This document shows, in pieces, positions 4,128 to 25,545 of a stretch of DNA of 64,000 bases. The DNA is from Promethearchaeota archaeon (GTDB taxonomy: Archaea > Asgardarchaeota > Lokiarchaeia > Sigyniarchaeales > SOKP01). The stretch is taken from NCBI GenBank assembly GCA_016839705.1, contig JAEOTR010000006.1, forward strand, positions 1-64,000. The letters are read 5' to 3'. The position numbers and the translations under genes are program-made. A model generated the notes under the pieces. The model was given only the letters and a program-made list of their open reading frames with translations, was not told where the DNA came from and made no database searches. The first letter of the stretch is position 1. Every line of letters starts with the position of its first letter.

Positions 4128-5219
4128 TTAAATCCATTTTTTCTTTCTAAAGAACCAGACCATTGATAGGGCAATAATTATCATTATAAATATAATTAAT
4201 GGATAAGCAAATGGGGTTGAAAATTCTGGGATATATACAAAATTCATCCCATAAAATCCCGCTAAAAATGATAATGGAATAAAAATTGTAGAGATCATTG
4301 TTAAAACTTTCATTATATCATTCATTTTGTTACTTACGCTGGAAAGATACATATCTAACATTCCAAAAATAATATCACGATAATTATCTAAGAGATCACT
4401 AATTCTAAAAATATGATCATATATATCTCTTAGATAAATTTGCATCTCATCTTCAATCAAATTTGATTGCTCACGCTGCAGTTTATTGATTACTTCTCTT
4501 ATTGGCCAAATTGATTTTCTTAACTCAATAGAAGATCTTTTCAATCCATAAATTTGTTGTAGAGTTTCGGGTTCAGGATTCTTAATCAAAACATCTTCAA
4601 TGTTTTCTATTTCCTCGCCTACCTTTTCTATTACAATGAAATAATTATCAACAATAATATCAATTAAAACATAAAATAGATAATCTGCCCCCATTAATCG
4701 AACTCTTCCTTTTGGAACTTGTATCCTTTCATAAATAGGATTGAAAAAGTTAGTATCACGCTCTTGGAATGATATTACGTAATTTTCTCCTAAAATCAAA
4801 CTTATTTGTTCAAATTCAAATTCCCCTTTATCTTGATTCCAACCTAACCTTTTAAATACTGCAAAAATATAGTTTCCATAATCTTCCAATTTAGGTCGTT
4901 GATTCGGGTTCAAGATGTCTTCTAAAACAAGTGGATGTAAACTAAAATGACGGCCAATCTCTTCAATAACGTCTACTTGATTAAGACCATATATATCAAT
5001 CCATCTAATTAACAGTTTTTCAATTTTAGTAAAATCTATCTGAATGTCTGTAAATTCTTGTAAATTAAAATAGTCTTCAGTGTAATCTGTTACTTTTATT
5101 TTAGTTTTTTCTTCTACTATATCCCCTGTATAAATTAGAGTTCCTGGAGGAAGACCAACTTTTTTCTTCTTTTTACTTGAAGGACTTGCTTTTCTAAGGG
5201 ATTTAGAAAATAACCTCAA
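4128..5219 (-). CDS. corA: Magnesium/cobalt transporter CorA
   Basis: GLPPGTLIY N-terminus, LHPLVLEDI, QRPKLEDY, GFYGMNF signature, two C-terminal TMs. Confidence 0.95.
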   Translation of the reverse strand: MRLFSKSLRKASPSSKKKKKVGLPPGTLIYTGDIVEEKTKIKVTDYTEDYFNLQEFTDIQIDFTKIEKLLIRWIDIYGLNQVDVIEEIGRHFSLHPLVLEDILNPNQRPKLEDYGNYIFAVFKRLGWNQDKGEFEFEQISLILGENYVISFQERDTNFFNPIYERIQVPKGRVRLMGADYLFYVLIDIIVDNYFIVIEKVGEEIENIEDVLIKNPEPETLQQIYGLKRSSIELRKSIWPIREVINKLQREQSNLIEDEMQIYLRDIYDHIFRISDLLDNYRDIIFGMLDMYLSSVSNKMNDIMKVLTMISTIFIPLSFLAGFYGMNFVYIPEFSTPFAYPLIIFIMIIIALSMVWFFRKKKWI

Positions 5220-5339
5220 ATTATTTCACTTAAACGCCAAAAAGTTAATTTTAACTAATAATTTAGTAAACTAACTTTTAAAATAAAAGTTTTCTTATAT
5301 TTTTTTTAATAAAATCTCCATTCTCTAAATAATAAAACC

Positions 5340-6275
5340 TTGGAGAAAAGTTATCGAATGAAAAGAATTTATAAAATAGTCATATGGACATCAATTATAG
5401 GAATTATTGTATTAGTTTATTTTTATTTTGGATTTAAACAATTATTAGTAAATATAATACTTTTAAATTTGGTTGCTTATGTCTTAAGGTCAATATTTAT
5501 TGATATATCTCATAGCTTGATTAAAAACTTATTATTTCGTTATTTAATCATGATAATTATAAATGCAATATGGTTATTATTCCCCTTTTGGTTGCTTTTT
5601 ATTATTTCAGATATTTTATTTGTAGCAATTATTTCTTTTCTGGTTGTAGCAATAGCTCTAACGTTTCAAAATATAATTAGTAATATTGCCTCAGGAGTAA
5701 TGCTTTTATCATCAGAAGGCTTTGAAGCCGGTGATTTAATTGAAACAAATGGAATTCAGGGTATTGTAAAAGAGATAACATTAAATAGTTTGAAGTTAGA
5801 GGATTTTGATGGATCTACCACATTTATTCCTAATAAAAATGCATTCAACTCATCAGTAGTCCGTTATACTCATAAACCTATTGAAAAGGAAAAAAAAATA
5901 GAAATTTCTAAAGTAGTAAAAAAAATCAGTAAAATGATAACTGGGGAAAAAAAAATAACTCGTTATATCAAAGTAGTTGAACTTTTAGATACTATAAATT
6001 CAGATAAACTTGATGAATTACTAACTCCAATCTTCGAGAAATATGAACCCATATTTGGGAAAAAACCTTTTTTTTATGCAAATAAGACTGTTAGTGGGAT
6101 TGTAAATCGTTTAAGTATCACTATTCAAATTATTACAGAGGACCCAAATTTAATTTTGACTTACACAGACCCTTTACTCAAGGAAATTCTTTTTAAAATA
6201 TATGATAAAGAAATTAATTTTGGATGGAACGATAAAGAAAAAGATTGTCTAGGAAATAGTCTTGAGGAGGATTGA
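5340..6275 (+). CDS. mscS: MscS-family small-conductance mechanosensitive channel
   Basis: N-terminal TMs, QNIISNIASGVMLL, FEAGDLIE..G.V.EI, IPN motif. Confidence 0.8.
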   Translation: MEKSYRMKRIYKIVIWTSIIGIIVLVYFYFGFKQLLVNIILLNLVAYVLRSIFIDISHSLIKNLLFRYLIMIIINAIWLLFPFWLLFIISDILFVAIISFLVVAIALTFQNIISNIASGVMLLSSEGFEAGDLIETNGIQGIVKEITLNSLKLEDFDGSTTFIPNKNAFNSSVVRYTHKPIEKEKKIEISKVVKKISKMITGEKKITRYIKVVELLDTINSDKLDELLTPIFEKYEPIFGKKPFFYANKTVSGIVNRLSITIQIITEDPNLILTYTDPLLKEILFKIYDKEINFGWNDKEKDCLGNSLEED

Positions 6276-7189
6276 AAACGGTATTATTTAATTCAGATTT
6301 GGAAGCATTAATATATCTTTTAATTATCGGGATAGGTTTTTACCTCTTAAATAAGATAATTAATGCAACATTTGGGAAAAGTGAAAAAGTACCTTTAAAA
6401 CAGAAAATCATCGTTAATTTTACTGTAAAAATTGTGACTGTTCTTGTAATAGTGTTCTTTATTATTGAGGGTTTTCCACTCGTTTCTTCGATTGATCCAA
6501 CTGGAACATATACAGCAGTACTTACTGGAGCAATTAGTACCGCAATCGCCTTCGCTTCTAGCAGTATATTTGCAAATTTTATTTCAGGTATTGTTTTAAT
6601 GCTAATAAGACCTTTTGAAGTTGAAGATTTAGTCAAAATTGAAGGAGATAAAGGTATTGTACGAGCGATAAATTTAACAAAAGTGAAGCTAGAGACATTT
6701 GATAATATAATAATCGAAAAATCAAATAGTCAAGTTCTTTATTCTAAAATTGCTAATTATACTGTAAAACTTGGGAAGAAAAAAACTTTTGAAGATTTTA
6801 AAAGTAAGATATTTGCACCTCAAGATACGGGATTTAAAGATATGTATGAAGATATTTTGAATTCCAAAAAAGAATTTGAAAATAACTTAAAAAGAGCCTA
6901 TGAGTCCTTTTCAACTAAATACTATCCAAAATTATACAATTATACTTTTAGAATGGCTTTTCCTTATAAAGGATTTCGAGTGATCATCGATAAAGTGGCA
7001 AAACTGTGTGATTTGTATAATCAGAAGAATATTTTTCGGATTAAACCCCAATTTGATGTAGTAAATTTTAATATAAGCATTATTGTTAAATTTCGATTAT
7101 TAACATTTAGTTCACAGAAAATATTTGATTTTCAACCTAAATTTGCCAATGATGTCTATAATATCATTTATAAATATAGATGTTCTTAA
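6272..7189 (+). CDS. mscS: MscS-family mechanosensitive channel (second, overlapping paralog)
   Basis: 3 TMs, FANFISGIVLMLIRPFEVEDLVKI..G.V. 4-bp overlap with the previous gene. Confidence 0.8.
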   Translation: MKTVLFNSDLEALIYLLIIGIGFYLLNKIINATFGKSEKVPLKQKIIVNFTVKIVTVLVIVFFIIEGFPLVSSIDPTGTYTAVLTGAISTAIAFASSSIFANFISGIVLMLIRPFEVEDLVKIEGDKGIVRAINLTKVKLETFDNIIIEKSNSQVLYSKIANYTVKLGKKKTFEDFKSKIFAPQDTGFKDMYEDILNSKKEFENNLKRAYESFSTKYYPKLYNYTFRMAFPYKGFRVIIDKVAKLCDLYNQKNIFRIKPQFDVVNFNISIIVKFRLLTFSSQKIFDFQPKFANDVYNIIYKYRCS

Positions 7190-7222: not shown

Positions 7223-9043
7223 TTATTGCAAATCATCCTTTTCTGCTTTTATATCTCCGTCTATTTCCAGTAGTTTTGAACCACAGCTCTCACAGTATAT
7301 AGTTAAACCCTTTACCAATTTTCTCACGAGTTCTAAGGGTAAATTATCCTCGCACTCAGGACAACATTGGGGATTTACAGCATTTTCAAATTCAGACATT
7401 ATAGAAGGGGTCATATCTTCATCTTCAGCAAAGATATTTACTTTTAAAACTGATTCCTGCTCATTTTGATTTCCTTTTAAAGTTAGTTTCAATCCAACAG
7501 AACGCTTGTTAAAAGATCCTTCAGCAAAACCTTTGATAGTTCCGAAAAATTTTCCCTCTATTTCTTGAGATTTCGCATCGATTATTGCGAAGTTCTTCGT
7601 TTTCAGTAAACTAGATAATTTATGATATAATTCTTCAGCGCCGCTAGGGATGGTAAATTCCTCATCATTTCTTTTAAATGTAAGAAGATCATTAGTAAGA
7701 TTCTCAAATTCCTCGTTAGAAACAATTTTTGGTTTTAATAATCCACATATCATTCTAATATCGTGCGGTTCTACATTAATGGTTTCAATTTGATCTTCTT
7801 CATTAATGAAGTTAATAAAGGAATGAATTGTTCCTCTAATGCAGTCTTTATTTGGTTTAAAGATGAAGGAAGGACTTACAAATCCACCCCCCTTTGAAAT
7901 CTTACTAAATTTAGCTCTATCAGGAGGGGATTCTGAATGTCCATCTATTCGAGATAAAATTAGGCTCTCTTCTGGATATGAATGGATATAAATATTAACA
8001 TCAGTTATATTATACTTTCCATTGTTAATCACCTTAATTTTAAAGACATATTCCCCTCCTTCTATTTGGCCCCCTCTAAGAACACGAACTGTTTGTGAAT
8101 CTACTTCTGCTTTAGAAGGTTCTAACATGCTTGGTTCGGGTCGAATCTCTTCAGTTGTAGTAACCTTAGGTTCTGGTTCTTGAGGTTCAGTATCTTCAAT
8201 AATTTCTTTTAACTTACCTTTTTCTAGCTTAAGCAGTATAATTTTATCTTTTGAAGCTGTTACCAATAATATAACTTTTTCATATCCTGCTTCTATTGTA
8301 TAAGTATCAAGACAGTTAATTTTTGATCCTAAGTTATATCCTCCCACATTTTCCTTATCTGAATTAATTATTTCTAGTAATCCAGTATTATGACCAATTA
8401 TCATTAGAGTTTGATCATAGAAATTGCACAATCCTAAGCTTGTAGGCTGGTTTTTAGATTGATATACCAACTCTGAATTCCCCTCATTATCAATATTAAG
8501 TACACTTCCGGATTTAAGTAGTAGATAAATCTTTCCTACAAACTCATCTGAAAAATTACCAATGGCACAATCTACAATTGGTTCGGGAGCTTTAAGTTCA
8601 ATAAACCTATTCCCTTCATTATCTAATCCTATTAATTGTTGATTTTCTAAACCAACTATAATTTCTTCTCTATTATCACCAAGTAAGTCCCCCGTTTCCA
8701 TACATATGATAGGAACTTTTAAGTTTGTGGACCAGATAGGATTTCCTTTTGAATCCATTACGTAGATGTTTCCATCTATTGCTCCTGAAATTAATTCTAT
8801 TCTATTTTCCTGGCTAATAGAAGCAATTTTAAACGTTGTTATATTTGATGAGAATTCAGTGAGAAATACTTCATTACCTTTTAAATCAAAAGCTTTCATT
8901 TCAGCACTAAATGAACACCCAATGATTTCGGGCTCTGAATCTCCTAATAGATTTGCAATTATACAAGAATATACCGTTCTCTTAAATTGACGACTCCAGA
9001 CGGACTTTACTTTAACTAATTGTATAGCCATTTCATATCTCAA
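7223..9043 (-). CDS. FG-GAP-like beta-propeller + adaptin-appendage-like (Ig sandwich + platform) + Zn-ribbon protein
   Basis: Six ~43-aa blades (GDLLGDNREEIIVG; ...DxxGN ends), Pro/Glu linker, Ig-like VRVLRGG...KIKVIN domain, LLKPKIVSNEEF platform entry, CPEC...CESCG. Confidence 0.7.
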   Translation of the reverse strand: MRYEMAIQLVKVKSVWSRQFKRTVYSCIIANLLGDSEPEIIGCSFSAEMKAFDLKGNEVFLTEFSSNITTFKIASISQENRIELISGAIDGNIYVMDSKGNPIWSTNLKVPIICMETGDLLGDNREEIIVGLENQQLIGLDNEGNRFIELKAPEPIVDCAIGNFSDEFVGKIYLLLKSGSVLNIDNEGNSELVYQSKNQPTSLGLCNFYDQTLMIIGHNTGLLEIINSDKENVGGYNLGSKINCLDTYTIEAGYEKVILLVTASKDKIILLKLEKGKLKEIIEDTEPQEPEPKVTTTEEIRPEPSMLEPSKAEVDSQTVRVLRGGQIEGGEYVFKIKVINNGKYNITDVNIYIHSYPEESLILSRIDGHSESPPDRAKFSKISKGGGFVSPSFIFKPNKDCIRGTIHSFINFINEEDQIETINVEPHDIRMICGLLKPKIVSNEEFENLTNDLLTFKRNDEEFTIPSGAEELYHKLSSLLKTKNFAIIDAKSQEIEGKFFGTIKGFAEGSFNKRSVGLKLTLKGNQNEQESVLKVNIFAEDEDMTPSIMSEFENAVNPQCCPECEDNLPLELVRKLVKGLTIYCESCGSKLLEIDGDIKAEKDDLQ

Positions 9044-9108: not shown

Positions 9109-9555
9109 CTATTCTTTATCTACATCCTCTTTAACTCGATTAACCAATTTCTTAAATGCTTCTGTTAAATTCCCTAATTCTGTTTCCTGGGTTGCTATTT
9201 CTTTATCAAAATCTGTAGCTATCTCTTGGAAAGATACAGTTTTTAGATCGTGTGTACAGAGTTTTAATGCTATGTTTGTTAATTTTTGAATTGGTTTTAC
9301 CACAGAATCTGCGAGTTTTAAACCCACGAAAAGGCTTATTACGATGATTTCCCAAAGGGTTACAAGTATAATTGCAGACTGTATCTCAATATTGGCAAGA
9401 AATTCTTCTGAAGCTCCAGTGATACTGTTACCTATAATATTATTAAATACAATGGCAATAATAGCAATAGTTCCTAATGCTATCACGTTTAAAATAATAA
9501 AGCTTAATAGAATTTCCTTCCTTATTCCGGATTTTCGTTTCTTTTCTTGAGCCAT
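9109..9555 (-). CDS. Small 2-TM HAMP-domain protein without output domain
   Basis: Two hydrophobic helices, then VVKPIQKLT...[19 protein letters not shown] pattern, then stop. Confidence 0.75.
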
Positions 9556-9557
9556 TT

Positions 9558-11291
9558 TTATCCCTCCTCTGGTATAAAACCTTCTATTTCTGAAGATGCC
9601 ATTATTTCTTTAACCCTTGTAAAAGCATCTGCAATCCGTTTTTGAACATTTTTTGCAGAATAAATAGTGATATATTTGCCAAGTGGGGTAGCATTGACCA
9701 TTTGCGTCATTTTTCTATGCACATTTTTCAATTCTGGTCCAACTCCAATTAAAACAAAATTGAGAGGAGGCTGAATTGACTTTATGAGAGTTGCAATTTT
9801 TCTTGGGTTGAATTCCTTGCTTAAATTATCTTCACCATCAGTTAATGTTATTACCCATTTCTGACGTTCTTGGGATTCTTCTCCCTGAATCATTGGTGCT
9901 TTGCTCAATATGTCAATAGCATGTGCTATTGCATCATAAAGGGCAGTCTCATACCTTGTATTTTCTAAATATTTAAATAAATCAACAATTTCCGCAATAT
10001 TTCCTCTCTTCTCTGTAAGTTCGAGAACCATATTTATTATAGAGTGAAAACCGACAATTGCAACACGATCTCCGATATTAATGGTTTCGTTAAAGACACC
10101 TAAAGCACCCATTCGTGCAGCTTGCATTTTTCCCCATTCTTTCATACTGCCAGATTGATCAATTACAAACACTACATCCTTTTTACTAACAAGAAGATCA
10201 TTTATTTTTGAAAGTTCAAGCTCTGCTTTATGATGAAGGGTTGTATCCCCTTGATTTTCATATAATTTGATCATTGCTTCAAGATTATTTTTCATTAGAG
10301 GATAATTCTGTAGATTTCCTGCCAATTTCAAAGATTTGTTGAAATGCTCTTCTGCTTCTTCTGGTTTATTTTTTAACATTGAAAGTCTTCCTAATTGAAA
10401 TTCGTCTTCTGCTAATCCTACATTATAATCCCATTTGCTATCAAGTCTAAAAGCTTCATTTAGTTGTTCTTGAGCGAGCTCTAATTCATTTTTTAGAATG
10501 TGAAGAACCCCTATATTTCTTTTTCTAGCGGCAATTCCTTCATCATCATCCATTTCCTTATCCAATTCAAGAGCTTTTTCAAAATCTTTCATAGCTTCGA
10601 CCCACTTTTCTTCGGAAAGGAAGAGAATACCACGATTATTATATCGAGAGCTTAATCCTCCTATATCATCCATTTGCTCACCGATTTCAATTGATTTAGC
10701 ATAACAATCTTTAGCCCTGTTATTATCTCCCCACATTCGATATATATTTCCAAGATTATTCAGGCACATTCCCTGTCCATTAAGATTTTTAGATGTCCGG
10801 AATAGTTCTAAAGCGGCGTTATAATTAGTAAAAGCAAGATTCATGTCACCACGATAATAACTTTTATTTCCCAAACGCATGGTAACCAATAAATTTTGAA
10901 AAGATTGAGCTAGAATACCAATTTCGTTTCCCCTAATCCTACCATCCATCGAAATCTCTTGTGATAAATCACCTTCAGCTATCATTTCTATCGATTGAGT
11001 TAATTCATTAATAGGTACTGTAATTCTACTGGAGATACGAATTACACCCAATGAAATTACAATGATAATAATAATAGCTATAATAATGAACGTTATTATC
11101 AAAGGAACTTTAAATGCTTCAACTGAGCCAAAACCTAAATTAACATATTCATCAATAATCGAAAATAACTGTAATATTAAAGCTATTGTCAAAATTACGA
11201 ATGGAATTAAAATGCAAGCAATCATGGTTAATATAATCCTTCGTCGTAATGACTTTTTCTTCCCAATTTGTTGTACATCCAGATCTTCCAT
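9558..11291 (-). CDS. Membrane-anchored HAMP-TPR-vWA protein
   Basis: 2 TMs, HAMP ([22 protein letters not shown]), TPRs ([24 protein letters not shown]), vWA with intact MIDAS (DQSGS, T, LTDG). Confidence 0.85.
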
Positions 11292-11356
11292 CTTTTTTCT
11301 CTCCTTTTTCTTTTTTTAATATTGTGATATCTCTTTTATTTAAACAATTAAAAAAA

Positions 11357-12109
11357 TTAAATTCCCTTATCTATCCCTTCATAAATTAAAAATATTGATG
11401 TGAAAATAAAGGCTTTAACAATAGCCAACCCTATTAATCCGAAATCTTCAGCCCCAAATGCTGCATCAATGATACCAAACAAGGAAGCCATAGAAAGTCC
11501 AACACCCATCGAATATCTTTTCCATTTTGCACTTTTGTTATCCATTTTTCGACCACTATACATAATAATAGGACCAAGAAATATCATCATTATAATCAAC
11601 ATTAATGACAACAATGTTAATGCTAAACCTCTGATTCCTGTCTCAGGTAAACCGCCAGGAGATGCTTCCCATTTAGTATAAATTGAAGGATTCGTATAAA
11701 TCAAAATCGCAAAAATTACGCTAATAATCGCCATGATACCAGTTACTGGAATTTTGTAACGACCGTCTTTAAATGTTTCCATCGCAACGTAGGACCAAAT
11801 TGGTATTCCCAGTGCGGGTCCCCATGCATATCCAAGAACTCCCACGTTTGGATCACCATCTGGATACCCTAAAGGGTTAAGTCCTAATATCATCAGTAAA
11901 AAACTTGCAGAGACACCAAACCATGCTTGATAAACTGAAAATAAACCAACTCCTCTTAATATGATCTTCTTTTTAACTTTAGGATTTGGTGCTCTTCGAG
12001 CATGTTTAAAAAAGAGGACAAATGCCAAAATATAACCACTGAGAATAATCTCTAAACCAGTTACCCCATTTATAATATCAATATTAGGAAGGACCATTTT
12101 ATTAGTCAC
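11357..12109 (-). CDS. Seven-transmembrane protein (paralog of 24805-25545)
   Basis: Seven hydrophobic segments in 250 aa. Shares NG, W..S.SFL, NP, K.K, TM6 Asp and TM7 K/R..I.TS...Y.G with the 246-aa protein. Confidence 0.7.
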   Translation of the reverse strand: MTNKMVLPNIDIINGVTGLEIILSGYILAFVLFFKHARRAPNPKVKKKIILRGVGLFSVYQAWFGVSASFLLMILGLNPLGYPDGDPNVGVLGYAWGPALGIPIWSYVAMETFKDGRYKIPVTGIMAIISVIFAILIYTNPSIYTKWEASPGGLPETGIRGLALTLLSLMLIIMMIFLGPIIMYSGRKMDNKSAKWKRYSMGVGLSMASLFGIIDAAFGAEDFGLIGLAIVKAFIFTSIFLIYEGIDKGI

Positions 12110-15771: not shown

Positions 15772-16269
15772 TTATAAAGGAAAAATTGCTATAATATCCC
15801 AATCTTTTATTACATAATTCATATTATGAATCGGTTTACCATTTACAATAATTTCTAGTCTATCATGTAATTGAGAAATTCTATATTTATTTAGAACAGA
15901 TTTAATGGTACTACCTTCGGGTAAATCTACTACTGCTTCAGCAGGGCGGAATTTCTTTAATCCTTCATGAAGCACAATCTTTACATAAATGGATTTAATT
16001 TGAGTGATCTCCTTAAACATTAAGCCCATTCTTTCGGGGAAAATACCAACACGGTCCCCCTTCCTCACGATTTTTCCTGCTCCACTATATATCCCGTTAA
16101 TAAAAATATGACTTACTTCATCATTATCGATATTTAGTTTTTCAAAAATATCTAATACAGTTATTAAATTATCAACTTCGATTTTAAGAGTGTGTGGAAT
16201 TCCGGCACCACGTTTTTTATTAGGGAATTTTTCTCTTAAATCTCCATATAATTTTACAACTATAGACAT
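15772..16269 (-). CDS. Tandem MoaD/ThiS-like (double beta-grasp) protein lacking C-terminal GG
   Basis: Two repeats: VKLYGDL...IFING...KGDRVGIFP and VKIVLHEGL...IIVNG...KDWDIIAIFP. Confidence 0.8.
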   Translation of the reverse strand: MSIVVKLYGDLREKFPNKKRGAGIPHTLKIEVDNLITVLDIFEKLNIDNDEVSHIFINGIYSGAGKIVRKGDRVGIFPERMGLMFKEITQIKSIYVKIVLHEGLKKFRPAEAVVDLPEGSTIKSVLNKYRISQLHDRLEIIVNGKPIHNMNYVIKDWDIIAIFPL

Positions 16270-24804: not shown

Positions 24805-25545
24805 ATGACATTGAACCCCTTGGATGTTTTAAACGGAATATTTAGTTTCATTTTTGTGATGATTTCTTTAGTCGTTGGCTTTTTAATACTGATAAGATAT
24901 TTCAGATATAAAGAGAAAATTTATTTTTTAGTTGGAGCTACCTGGATATTAATATCTGAACCATGGTGGCCTTCTAGTTTATCTTTTCTAGTATCATTAA
25001 GTAATGGAGTAGGAATAACGCCAATGATATACTTTTTAATAGGGAATGTGTTGGTCCCACTGGCGATTGCCTTATGGTTACTAGCATTTTCAGATTTTTT
25101 ATACACTGAAAAACGTAAATTGATACTCCTCCTATTTGCAATTATAGGAATAATCTTCGAAGTGTTATTCTTCACTCTATTATTTATAAATCCAGATCTA
25201 ATTGGAATTTTAAACCCACCGGTTGATGTAAGTTATAATTTCTTCATAATGATTTTCCTATTAATCTTTATCTTAATTGTTGTCATTAGTGGTTTATTGT
25301 TCGCTCGTTTATCTTTGAAGTCTGATGATCCAGAAGTTAAACTAAAAGGAAAATTATTAGTAATTGCGTATATTGCCTTTTTCGTAGGAGCATTATTAGA
25401 TTCATCTATACCATTAAATGCGCTTGGAGTAATATTTGTGAGGTTAATATTAATAACGAGTGCCATCTTTTGGTATGGTGGGTTCTTACTTCCTCATTGG
25501 ATGAAAAAGCTCTTTCTAAAACAGAAAAAGGTAATACAAGGATAA
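24805..25545 (+). CDS. Seven-transmembrane protein (paralog of 11357-12109)
   Basis: Seven hydrophobic helices, basic loops after TM1, TM3 and TM5, basic C-terminal tail. Confidence 0.75.
   Translation: MTLNPLDVLNGIFSFIFVMISLVVGFLILIRYFRYKEKIYFLVGATWILISEPWWPSSLSFLVSLSNGVGITPMIYFLIGNVLVPLAIALWLLAFSDFLYTEKRKLILLLFAIIGIIFEVLFFTLLFINPDLIGILNPPVDVSYNFFIMIFLLIFILIVVISGLLFARLSLKSDDPEVKLKGKLLVIAYIAFFVGALLDSSIPLNALGVIFVRLILITSAIFWYGGFLLPHWMKKLFLKQKKVIQG

Follow-up and report, generated by a model that had tools for sequence, protein, structure and literature searches.

The window examined here is a stretch of 64,000 nucleotides from a Promethearchaeota archaeon of the Lokiarchaeia (order Sigyniarchaeales; NCBI GenBank assembly GCA_016839705.1, contig JAEOTR010000006.1, positions 1 to 64,000), and its element of interest is gene A, which belongs to a cassette of four co-oriented genes on the (-) strand. 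The cassette runs from 12109 down to 7223 in the order P0003 (a seven-transmembrane, or 7TM, protein), A, B and C, and all feature coordinates of the cassette given below refer to this strand. Gene A (9558..11291) has a stop-free translation of 577 aa, P0001, which contains the protein strings quoted in a preliminary description of this DNA and which, according to Pfam and an AlphaFold2 (AF2) model, is composed of two transmembrane (TM) helices, a HAMP domain, a solenoid of tetratricopeptide repeats (TPRs) and a von Willebrand factor A (vWA) domain. A basic N-terminus (KKKSLRRR) precedes TM1 (about residues 19–43; 11163..11237), which is followed by an outer loop of about 19 residues (44–62; 11106..11162) and by TM2 (about residues 63–85; 11037..11105), and the latter runs on into AS1, the first helix of HAMP. 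The HAMP domain itself (residues 86–139; 10875..11036) is made up of AS1 with P93, a connector, and a second helix, AS2, with E123. The TPR solenoid (residues 140–367; 10191..10874) has six hairpins when AS2 is counted as its first helix, and the vWA domain (residues 368–567; 9591..10190) carries the residues D378, S380, S382, T449 and D485 of a metal ion-dependent adhesion site (MIDAS). The protein ends in a short tail (9561..9590) with an h-h-E-x-h motif, the glutamate of which is E570.

Pfam places HAMP (PF00672) at residues 86–135 (35.7 bits, E 1e-8, gathering cut-off 25), TPR_1 and TPR_12 across 137 to about 340 (E 1e-20), and VWA_2 (43.5 bits) and VWA (40.7 bits) at residues 372–531, the repeat and vWA matches also lying above their gathering cut-offs. 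The AF2 model, which is of a single chain and was built with 96 homologues (mean predicted local distance difference test score, pLDDT, 87.8), has TM1 as a helix over residues 15–51, a turn of a few residues, and TM2 and AS1 as one continuous helix (55–105), followed by the connector (106–122), AS2 (123–139), a kink of three residues at LGN, six helical hairpins up to residue 367 and a classic vWA fold (371–567). In this predicted structure AS2 is at the same time helix A of the first TPR, which agrees with the claim of the preliminary description that the second HAMP helix leads straight into the first repeat; the intact DxSxS/T/D pattern noticed there in the vWA domain was likewise recovered. 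The HAMP signature is present in P0001 in its position right after the last TM helix, its two helices and connector, and the residues P93 and E123. Across 96 family members from Asgard archaea and eukaryotes these two residues are at least 90% conserved, and the D/S/S/T/D of the MIDAS are invariant or nearly so. E570 is also at least 90% conserved in both groups, in a tail that has low pLDDT in the model. Among the orthologues that share the short form of P0001, the most conserved segments are AS2 (0.94) and the tail (0.93). Because a basic stretch follows TM2 and the N-terminus is basic too, the positive-inside rule implies an N-in topology, by which HAMP, TPR and vWA are predicted to be cytoplasmic.

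HAMP receptors are the standard prokaryotic route for carrying signals across membranes and, to our knowledge, those described so far end in enzymes or chemotaxis domains. The family of P0001 ends instead in two protein-docking domains. Scans with Pfam and NCBIfam detected no kinase, methyl-accepting chemotaxis protein (MCP), cyclase or phosphatase domain in P0001: MCPsignal (PF00015) is not matched, the NCBIfam MCP models reaching the TM-HAMP part only and at scores far below their cut-offs, and neither are HisKA and HATPase_c, the kinase models covering the HAMP or the TPR part only and below their thresholds. Domain membership tests led to the rejection of P0001 as an MCP, as a histidine kinase and as a protein of the alpha2delta type, the last of which is compared in detail below. 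The full architecture is covered by no NCBIfam or Pfam family model, and a full-text literature search found no paper on it in Asgard archaea, ciliates, chytrids or jakobids, all of which bears out the earlier remark that TPR-vWA is not a classic HAMP output. The family is an undescribed, enzyme-free class of HAMP receptor common to Asgard archaea and some eukaryotes.

Within the Asgard archaea, approximately 60 full-length orthologues of P0001 were found in metagenome bins at 67–93% identity, so the architecture lies far beyond what chance would assemble; all of these close orthologues are annotated merely as 'tetratricopeptide repeat protein'. Remoter relatives (25–59% identity, 850–990 aa) have a dCache_1 sensor between the two TM helices, an ectodomain of about 300 aa at the place that is taken in P0001 by the short outer loop, and the usual form of the family is dCache_1 ectodomain-TM-HAMP-TPR-vWA. 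A family member occurs in 95 of the 301 Asgard genomes sampled, spread over 8 families, and the short form, in the same sample, occurs in the window's own family alone, where its distribution is uneven. P0001 stands inside the family tree with support of 98–100 in the Shimodaira–Hasegawa-like approximate likelihood ratio test (SH-aLRT), and two relatives of 806 aa in which dCache is not recognisable (P0075 and P0076) branch just outside the short forms. Of the traits that define the family, P0001 has the fusion of AS2 to the first TPR with its junction motif, the MIDAS vWA and the h-h-E-x-h tail, and it lacks the dCache_1 domain, its TM1-TM2 loop being about 19 residues long. The copy in the window is a paralogue of derived form that has lost its ectodomain. 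In one genome of the window's genus (G192) a long dCache form (876 aa, contig 16) is found alongside the short form and its 7TM neighbour (contigs 43 and 100), and because both copies coexist the short form is to be seen as a paralogue and has not simply replaced the long one.

The range of the family among prokaryotes was assessed by two broad searches. HMMER was run exhaustively against 1.84 billion cluster representatives. Among the best 150 matches, which were listed, about 50 are full-length, and every one of these that could be given a name comes from an Asgard archaeon or a eukaryote; the lower-ranked matches are multi-repeat TPR proteins that align over residues 140–330 only. A motif scan of one genome per species in 185,579 prokaryote species yielded 109 relatives. 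Each of the best 80 of these 109 bears an archaeal title, which in nearly every case is an Asgard name (Thor, Heimdall, Hodarchaeum mangrovi, Sigynarchaeum and Promethearchaeum), and they include the cultured Lokiarchaeum ossiferum and one entry labelled 'Methanobacteriota'. No bacterial member was seen among the best 80 of the 109 or among the HMMER matches that could be named. Within the matches listed, then, the family appears among prokaryotes to be confined to Asgard archaea, and the possibility entertained in the preliminary description, that the architecture is widespread in bacteria, finds nothing in its favour there. The ESM Atlas returned a Thorarchaeota Cache-TPR-vWA cluster at low scores (0.75–0.77) together with generic bacterial vWA folds, and no eukaryote cluster surfaced in it.

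Eukaryote homologues come from six named species: the jakobids Andalucia godoyi (P0217, ANDGO_00932) and Stygiella incarcerata (P0259), both from EukProt; the heterotrich ciliates Blepharisma stoltei (P0279, on a contig of 1.1 Mb), Stentor coeruleus (P0338, OMJ78293.1, from NCBI/UniRef) and Fabrea salina (P0346, from EukProt); and the chytrid fungus Zopfochytrium polystomum (P0224, KAI9348280.1, on a contig of 341 kb). An additional cluster contains a marine eukaryote transcript. The named proteins have the TM2-HAMP-junction-TPR-vWA layout in common with the Asgard family. By BLASTP, residues 65–541 of P0001 align with residues 404–902 of the Andalucia protein (E 2e-42), which covers TM2 through vWA, and in Blepharisma the alignment extends over TM2, HAMP, the junction and the first TPR (E 1e-16), the vWA domain further on being found by Pfam. 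A junction motif of approximately F..L...LRFGN..YY.GD...A..NY..AL.LF....N..G.G.C.NNLGN, with variation in its R-L/F-G-N part, is found in Asgard and eukaryote sequences alike, and the G-x-G-x-C-x-NN-x-G-N motif is present in the named eukaryote proteins. The MIDAS residues are kept in members from both sides, and the h-h-E-x-h tail forms the end of the protein in every lineage, Asgard or eukaryote. These junction alignments bear on two statements of the preliminary description. The class of receptor suspected there, shared between Asgard archaea and eukaryotes, is upheld, the junction on which that suspicion turned being present in named eukaryote proteins. The statement there that similar proteins occur in ciliates and other protists stands as regards the jakobid, heterotrich and chytrid proteins with the same layout and motif, but an expansion in ciliates was not borne out: the ciliate members amount to a handful of paralogue groups, all heterotrich-like. 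No member surfaced from Tetrahymena, Paramecium, animals or plants in the searched sets, which hold few eukaryote proteomes. Contamination is unlikely as the source of the eukaryote genes, because six species from independent projects are involved, their proteins fall into lineage-coherent clades, and they are 22–30% identical to the archaeal ones.

The direction of descent was read from two trees, both made by a quick search and with SH-aLRT values as their only support. The first was built from the sensor-plus-HAMP half (77 rows, 467 columns, LG+C20 with posterior mean site frequencies, PMSF) and was rooted on the product of gene B, a paralogue of the N-terminal part of A that is described below. 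The B proteins form one clade (SH-aLRT 99) and the A proteins together with the eukaryote ones another (99); all 18 eukaryote-side rows fall in a single clade (97), the sister of which (99) is a subgroup of eight Asgard A proteins. The members of this subgroup sit in Heimdallarchaeota-labelled genomes, and one of them is a second copy in the closed genome CP070760.1. Monophyly of the Asgard A proteins was rejected by the approximately unbiased (AU) test (delta lnL 51, p 0.0017). The second tree, of the independent C-terminal half from HAMP to vWA (90 rows, unrooted), separates 24 eukaryote-side rows from 66 Asgard rows (98), and the eukaryote branch adjoins the same Heimdallarchaeota-labelled subgroup. 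The phylogeny that the preliminary description had proposed as a check thus has the eukaryotes nested within the Asgard A proteins, and an origin of the eukaryote genes inside the Asgard radiation, later than the duplication into A and B, is well supported by these sequence comparisons. Their clade is nearest to the Heimdallarchaeota-labelled paralogue group and not to the window's lineage.

The trees are compatible with descent from the archaeal host and with early transfer alike. In the second case the link between Asgard archaea and eukaryotes would be real and a single eukaryote lineage would have received the gene horizontally from a Heimdall-type archaeon, with later spread from eukaryote to eukaryote. 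The restriction to three eukaryote groups (heterotrich ciliates, jakobids and one chytrid), with no animals, plants, Tetrahymena or Paramecium among the matches, is what such a history would leave behind, and Cache domains in archaea and eukaryotes have been ascribed to transfer (Upadhyay 2016, PMC4822843; Gumerov 2022, PMC8915833). On the other hand, the eukaryote rows are one clade with long internal branches and lineage-coherent subclades that span Discoba, Alveolata and Fungi, their sister group is Heimdallarchaeota-labelled, which is the position expected under vertical descent, and the patchiness is partly a matter of sampling, there being few eukaryote proteomes in the searched sets. 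Transfer followed by spread is on balance unlikely, though it is the strongest of the alternatives considered here. That a dCache_1-TM-HAMP receptor with an adaptor-docking output is a genuine eukaryotic signature protein, which would have originated and undergone the A/B duplication in Asgard archaea and then passed from a Heimdall-type host into the first eukaryotes, is put forward tentatively and at somewhat less than even odds.

The genes around A are informative about how the protein might work. Gene B (P0002, 148 aa; 9109..9555) encodes a 2TM-HAMP protein without an output domain and is a paralogue of the N-terminal module of A. It starts 2 nt past the stop of A, this spacer of 2 nt standing directly before its ATG, and a GGAGG Shine-Dalgarno-like site for it lies within the last codons of A (9556–9575), those that encode the C-terminal tail. 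Ahead of A there is an AT-rich gap of 65 nt (11292–11356) with a TTTAAATA box and a GGAG. The site in the last codons of A, the short spacer and the box with its GGAG fit the idea that B is translationally coupled and that A may be served by an internal promoter. Gene C (P0004, 606 aa; 7223..9043), located 65 nt after B, encodes a beta-propeller with a C-terminal Zn ribbon, and directly upstream of A lies the gene for the 7TM membrane protein P0003 (250 aa; 11357..12109). In a gene-order survey of 21 fetched loci and 80 further loci, A and B are adjacent in all 21 and, wherever there was room, in the 80 others, and C is present in 14 of the 21 and in most of the 80. The paralogy of A and B, as measured in a complete Heimdall genome, covers everything up to and including HAMP (26% identity over 492 aa, E 8e-49), right after which B stops. 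In the window's clade dCache is gone from both A and B.

The 7TM gene was found upstream of A in every short-form locus with room for it and in no long-form locus, and close orthologues of P0003 (68–73% identity) occur only in the six genomes with the short form, directly upstream. In P0003 a residue of TM6 (D215) is invariant and TM7 carries K/R. Pfam gives no rhodopsin family match for it, neither Bac_rhodopsin nor heliorhodopsin. An open reading frame elsewhere in the window (24805–25545) was considered as a paralogue of P0003 and was rejected, its identity being merely 18% and the pair not being recovered at E 1e-5. A 7TM orthologue in the same genus (L126, G291:C112:7307-8044) has an in-frame TAA, which could be a sequencing error or mark a pseudogene. 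Two further observations concern the surroundings: downstream of the cassette, at 4128–7189, lie a gene for a CorA Mg2+ channel and two tandem genes for MscS-type channels, and at 15772–16269 a protein of 165 aa is encoded with two ubiquitin-like domains (Ub-Mut7C and ThiS).

Comparison with known systems helps to delimit the family. Htr transducers output via an MCP signalling domain to CheA and CheW. The SRII/HtrII pair of haloarchaea resembles the short form in being a 2TM-HAMP transducer without a sensor of its own, with its gene beside that of a 7TM protein, lateral TM contacts being what would signal into HAMP. It differs in that the output of P0001 is TPR and vWA with no MCPsignal, that the 7TM protein is not a recognisable rhodopsin, and that there is an extra, output-less HAMP subunit. 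The top Foldseek matches of P0003 are G protein-coupled receptors (GPCRs), which are weak, and not rhodopsins, so the arrangement falls outside the sensory rhodopsin/transducer pairs proper. The TPR part is closest in Foldseek to the TPRs of LGN/Pins/GPSM2 and of kinesin light chain (E 1e-8, TM-score by target 0.54–0.62), and the family profile matches the same proteins at E 1e-33. In these solenoids the inner groove accommodates extended peptides. LGN/Pins and kinesin light chain are soluble scaffolds of eukaryotes that have no membrane, HAMP or vWA part, and the likeness is one at the level of the TPR class. For the vWA part, Foldseek gives matches to the vWA domains of ITIH1, CMG2, ArnB and Rpn10.

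The sensor of the long forms has well-studied counterparts. Against PDB, the family profile matches the sensor domains of the dCache_1-HAMP chemoreceptors Mlp24 and PctA (E 1e-22 to 1e-28), and like these (PMC8915833) the long forms are arranged as TM-dCache_1-TM-HAMP, many of them with the pattern YxxxxRxWY...Y...D; unlike these, the family has an output other than MCP, and dCache is wholly absent from the window's copy. The AA_motif of dCache_1 comprises Y121, R126, W128, Y144 and D173 (Gumerov 2022, PMC8915833). In the form YDPRxRxWY...Y...D it is found in nearly all eukaryote members and in the Heimdall- and Hod-type Asgard members, its carriers including P0217, P0259, P0279, P0311 and the chytrid P0224 as well as the Asgard long forms P0125–P0151. 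In the alignment it is missing from the Thor-type members, from the long forms of the window's family and from every B protein. About equal to the bacterial dCache sensors are the profile matches to alpha2delta-1 (E 9e-31, in two stretches) and CACHD1 (E 1e-28). These eukaryotic proteins share the same two domain types, a dCache_1 with the AA_motif and a MIDAS vWA, but their vWA is inserted in the dCache, everything is extracellular, and there is neither HAMP nor TPR (PMC8915833). P0001 has no dCache, and its vWA is C-terminal and predicted to be cytoplasmic; when the vWA part alone was compared with PDB sequences nothing was significant, the best match being CLCA1 (E 0.04), and alpha2delta was not matched. 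All eukaryotic dCache_1 proteins have been described as having an inserted vWA, and fungi as having none of these proteins (Gumerov 2022, PMC8915833). The eukaryote members of the present family, the chytrid one included, with what their sequences indicate to be an uninterrupted dCache-like region and a C-terminal cytoplasmic vWA, do not fit that statement.

The best explanation of these observations is that P0001 would be the subunit that carries the output in a transmembrane signalling module without enzymes, and taken whole, with the Asgard family, the eukaryote clade within it and a mechanism of docking, this explanation is given a probability of roughly 0.6. By analogy with other receptors, HAMP would form a dimeric four-helix bundle, the state of which is set by the TM helices. 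Because AS2 belongs to the first TPR, a change in that state would be passed on to the solenoid and the vWA domain, where the TPR groove and the MIDAS face with its bound Mg would be turned or uncovered. What is gated would be the docking of soluble partners, recruited to the membrane or released from it, and no catalytic activity would be switched. A and the output-less B probably form a HAMP heterodimer with a single output arm, and the loss of both ectodomains in parallel suggests that they act together. In short-form loci, the gain of a 7TM neighbour suggests that the input may come laterally in the membrane from this protein, as in sensory rhodopsin/Htr pairs, and the propeller/Zn-ribbon protein C would be the likeliest docked partner. 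More speculatively, the conserved C-terminal glutamate might act as an intrinsic ligand of the MIDAS or of the TPR groove and latch the off state. The model here is the intrinsic-ligand glutamate of integrin alpha-I/beta-I domains: in both cases a conserved glutamate lies a few residues past the last vWA helix of a domain with an intact MIDAS, but the likeness is pure analogy and E570 lies in a tail of low pLDDT. As a whole, this scheme of HAMP-gated partner docking is a reasoned proposal.

Two other functions were weighed for the protein, and both are improbable. P0001 might be a static membrane anchor or assembly scaffold, with HAMP as a dimerising stalk that carries no signal, comparable to the vWA/TPR proteins that are anchored to the membrane in Bat or MoxR-vWA systems. 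The window's copy does lack a sensor domain of its own, and vWA and TPR are typical of assembly and chaperone-adaptor roles. However, in the form that is ancestral and most frequent HAMP is preceded by a dCache_1 sensor, in part with an intact amino-acid-binding motif, conservation is highest in AS2 and the HAMP signature residues, and the cassette has no AAA+ MoxR gene; moreover, that both ectodomains were lost as a pair and a 7TM neighbour was acquired looks more like a switch to a new input than like signalling having been lost. The other candidate function, equally improbable, is that of an amino acid or amine sensor which controls an adjacent decarboxylase, the window's copy being a degenerate remnant. 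A gene for a pyridoxal phosphate (PLP)-dependent decarboxylase of 610–640 aa and of the ornithine/arginine/diaminopimelate (Orn/Arg/DAP) type (PF02784) lies beside the A-B pair in 13 of the 21 fetched loci and in most Thor and Heimdall loci (L031:11130-13061, L037:11397-13241 and most of L064–L123), and the AA_motif is present in Heimdall- and Hod-type members and in the eukaryote ones. This flanking gene hints, at the level of gene order, at an amino acid or amine as the ancestral ligand. As an account of the module it meets two difficulties: the decarboxylase is missing from the window's cassette and from the loci of the window's family, long or short, yet A, B and C are conserved there, and the Thor-type members lack the AA_motif despite their decarboxylase neighbour. 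Membership of a defence system against phages, or of another conflict system built on TPR and vWA domains, can be dismissed as very improbable, since PADLOC yields only generic TPR matches (E 1.5e-9) with no defence-specific model matching A, B, C or the 7TM protein, the cassette holds no effector (nuclease, protease or NTPase), and it is conserved and syntenic across Asgard classes and does not lie in a variable island.

Several points count against the explanation preferred here. A divergent bacterial member may exist, the scope being the best 80 of 109 relatives and the best 150 representatives. Many of the eukaryote-side rows in the trees are unnamed metagenome proteins, the eukaryotic origin of which is given by their clustering with named ones, and the eukaryote distribution is so patchy that vertical descent would need many losses. 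The trees come from quick searches and have several rows with long branches and skewed composition, and the group submitted to the AU test was chosen after the tree had been inspected. The AF2 model of P0003 (pLDDT 85.8) gives GPCR-like Foldseek matches that are weak (TM-score 0.4–0.55, root mean square deviation 6–8 A). Dimerisation, the pairing of A with B, the binding of C and of the 7TM protein, and the latch in the tail are deduced from gene order, paralogy and conservation.

If the proposal is correct, a signalling receptor would join the eukaryotic signature proteins, a list dominated by parts of the cytoskeleton, of trafficking and of the ubiquitin system, and there would be an archaeal route into eukaryotes for HAMP and for uninterrupted dCache_1 domains. 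The short form with its 7TM neighbour would represent an archaeal 7TM sensor coupled to an adaptor-recruiting transducer. These ideas could be tested in organisms that are culturable or tractable, namely Lokiarchaeum ossiferum, Stentor and Blepharisma, and, if they hold, receptor-adaptor signalling of the eukaryotic kind would predate the eukaryotes.

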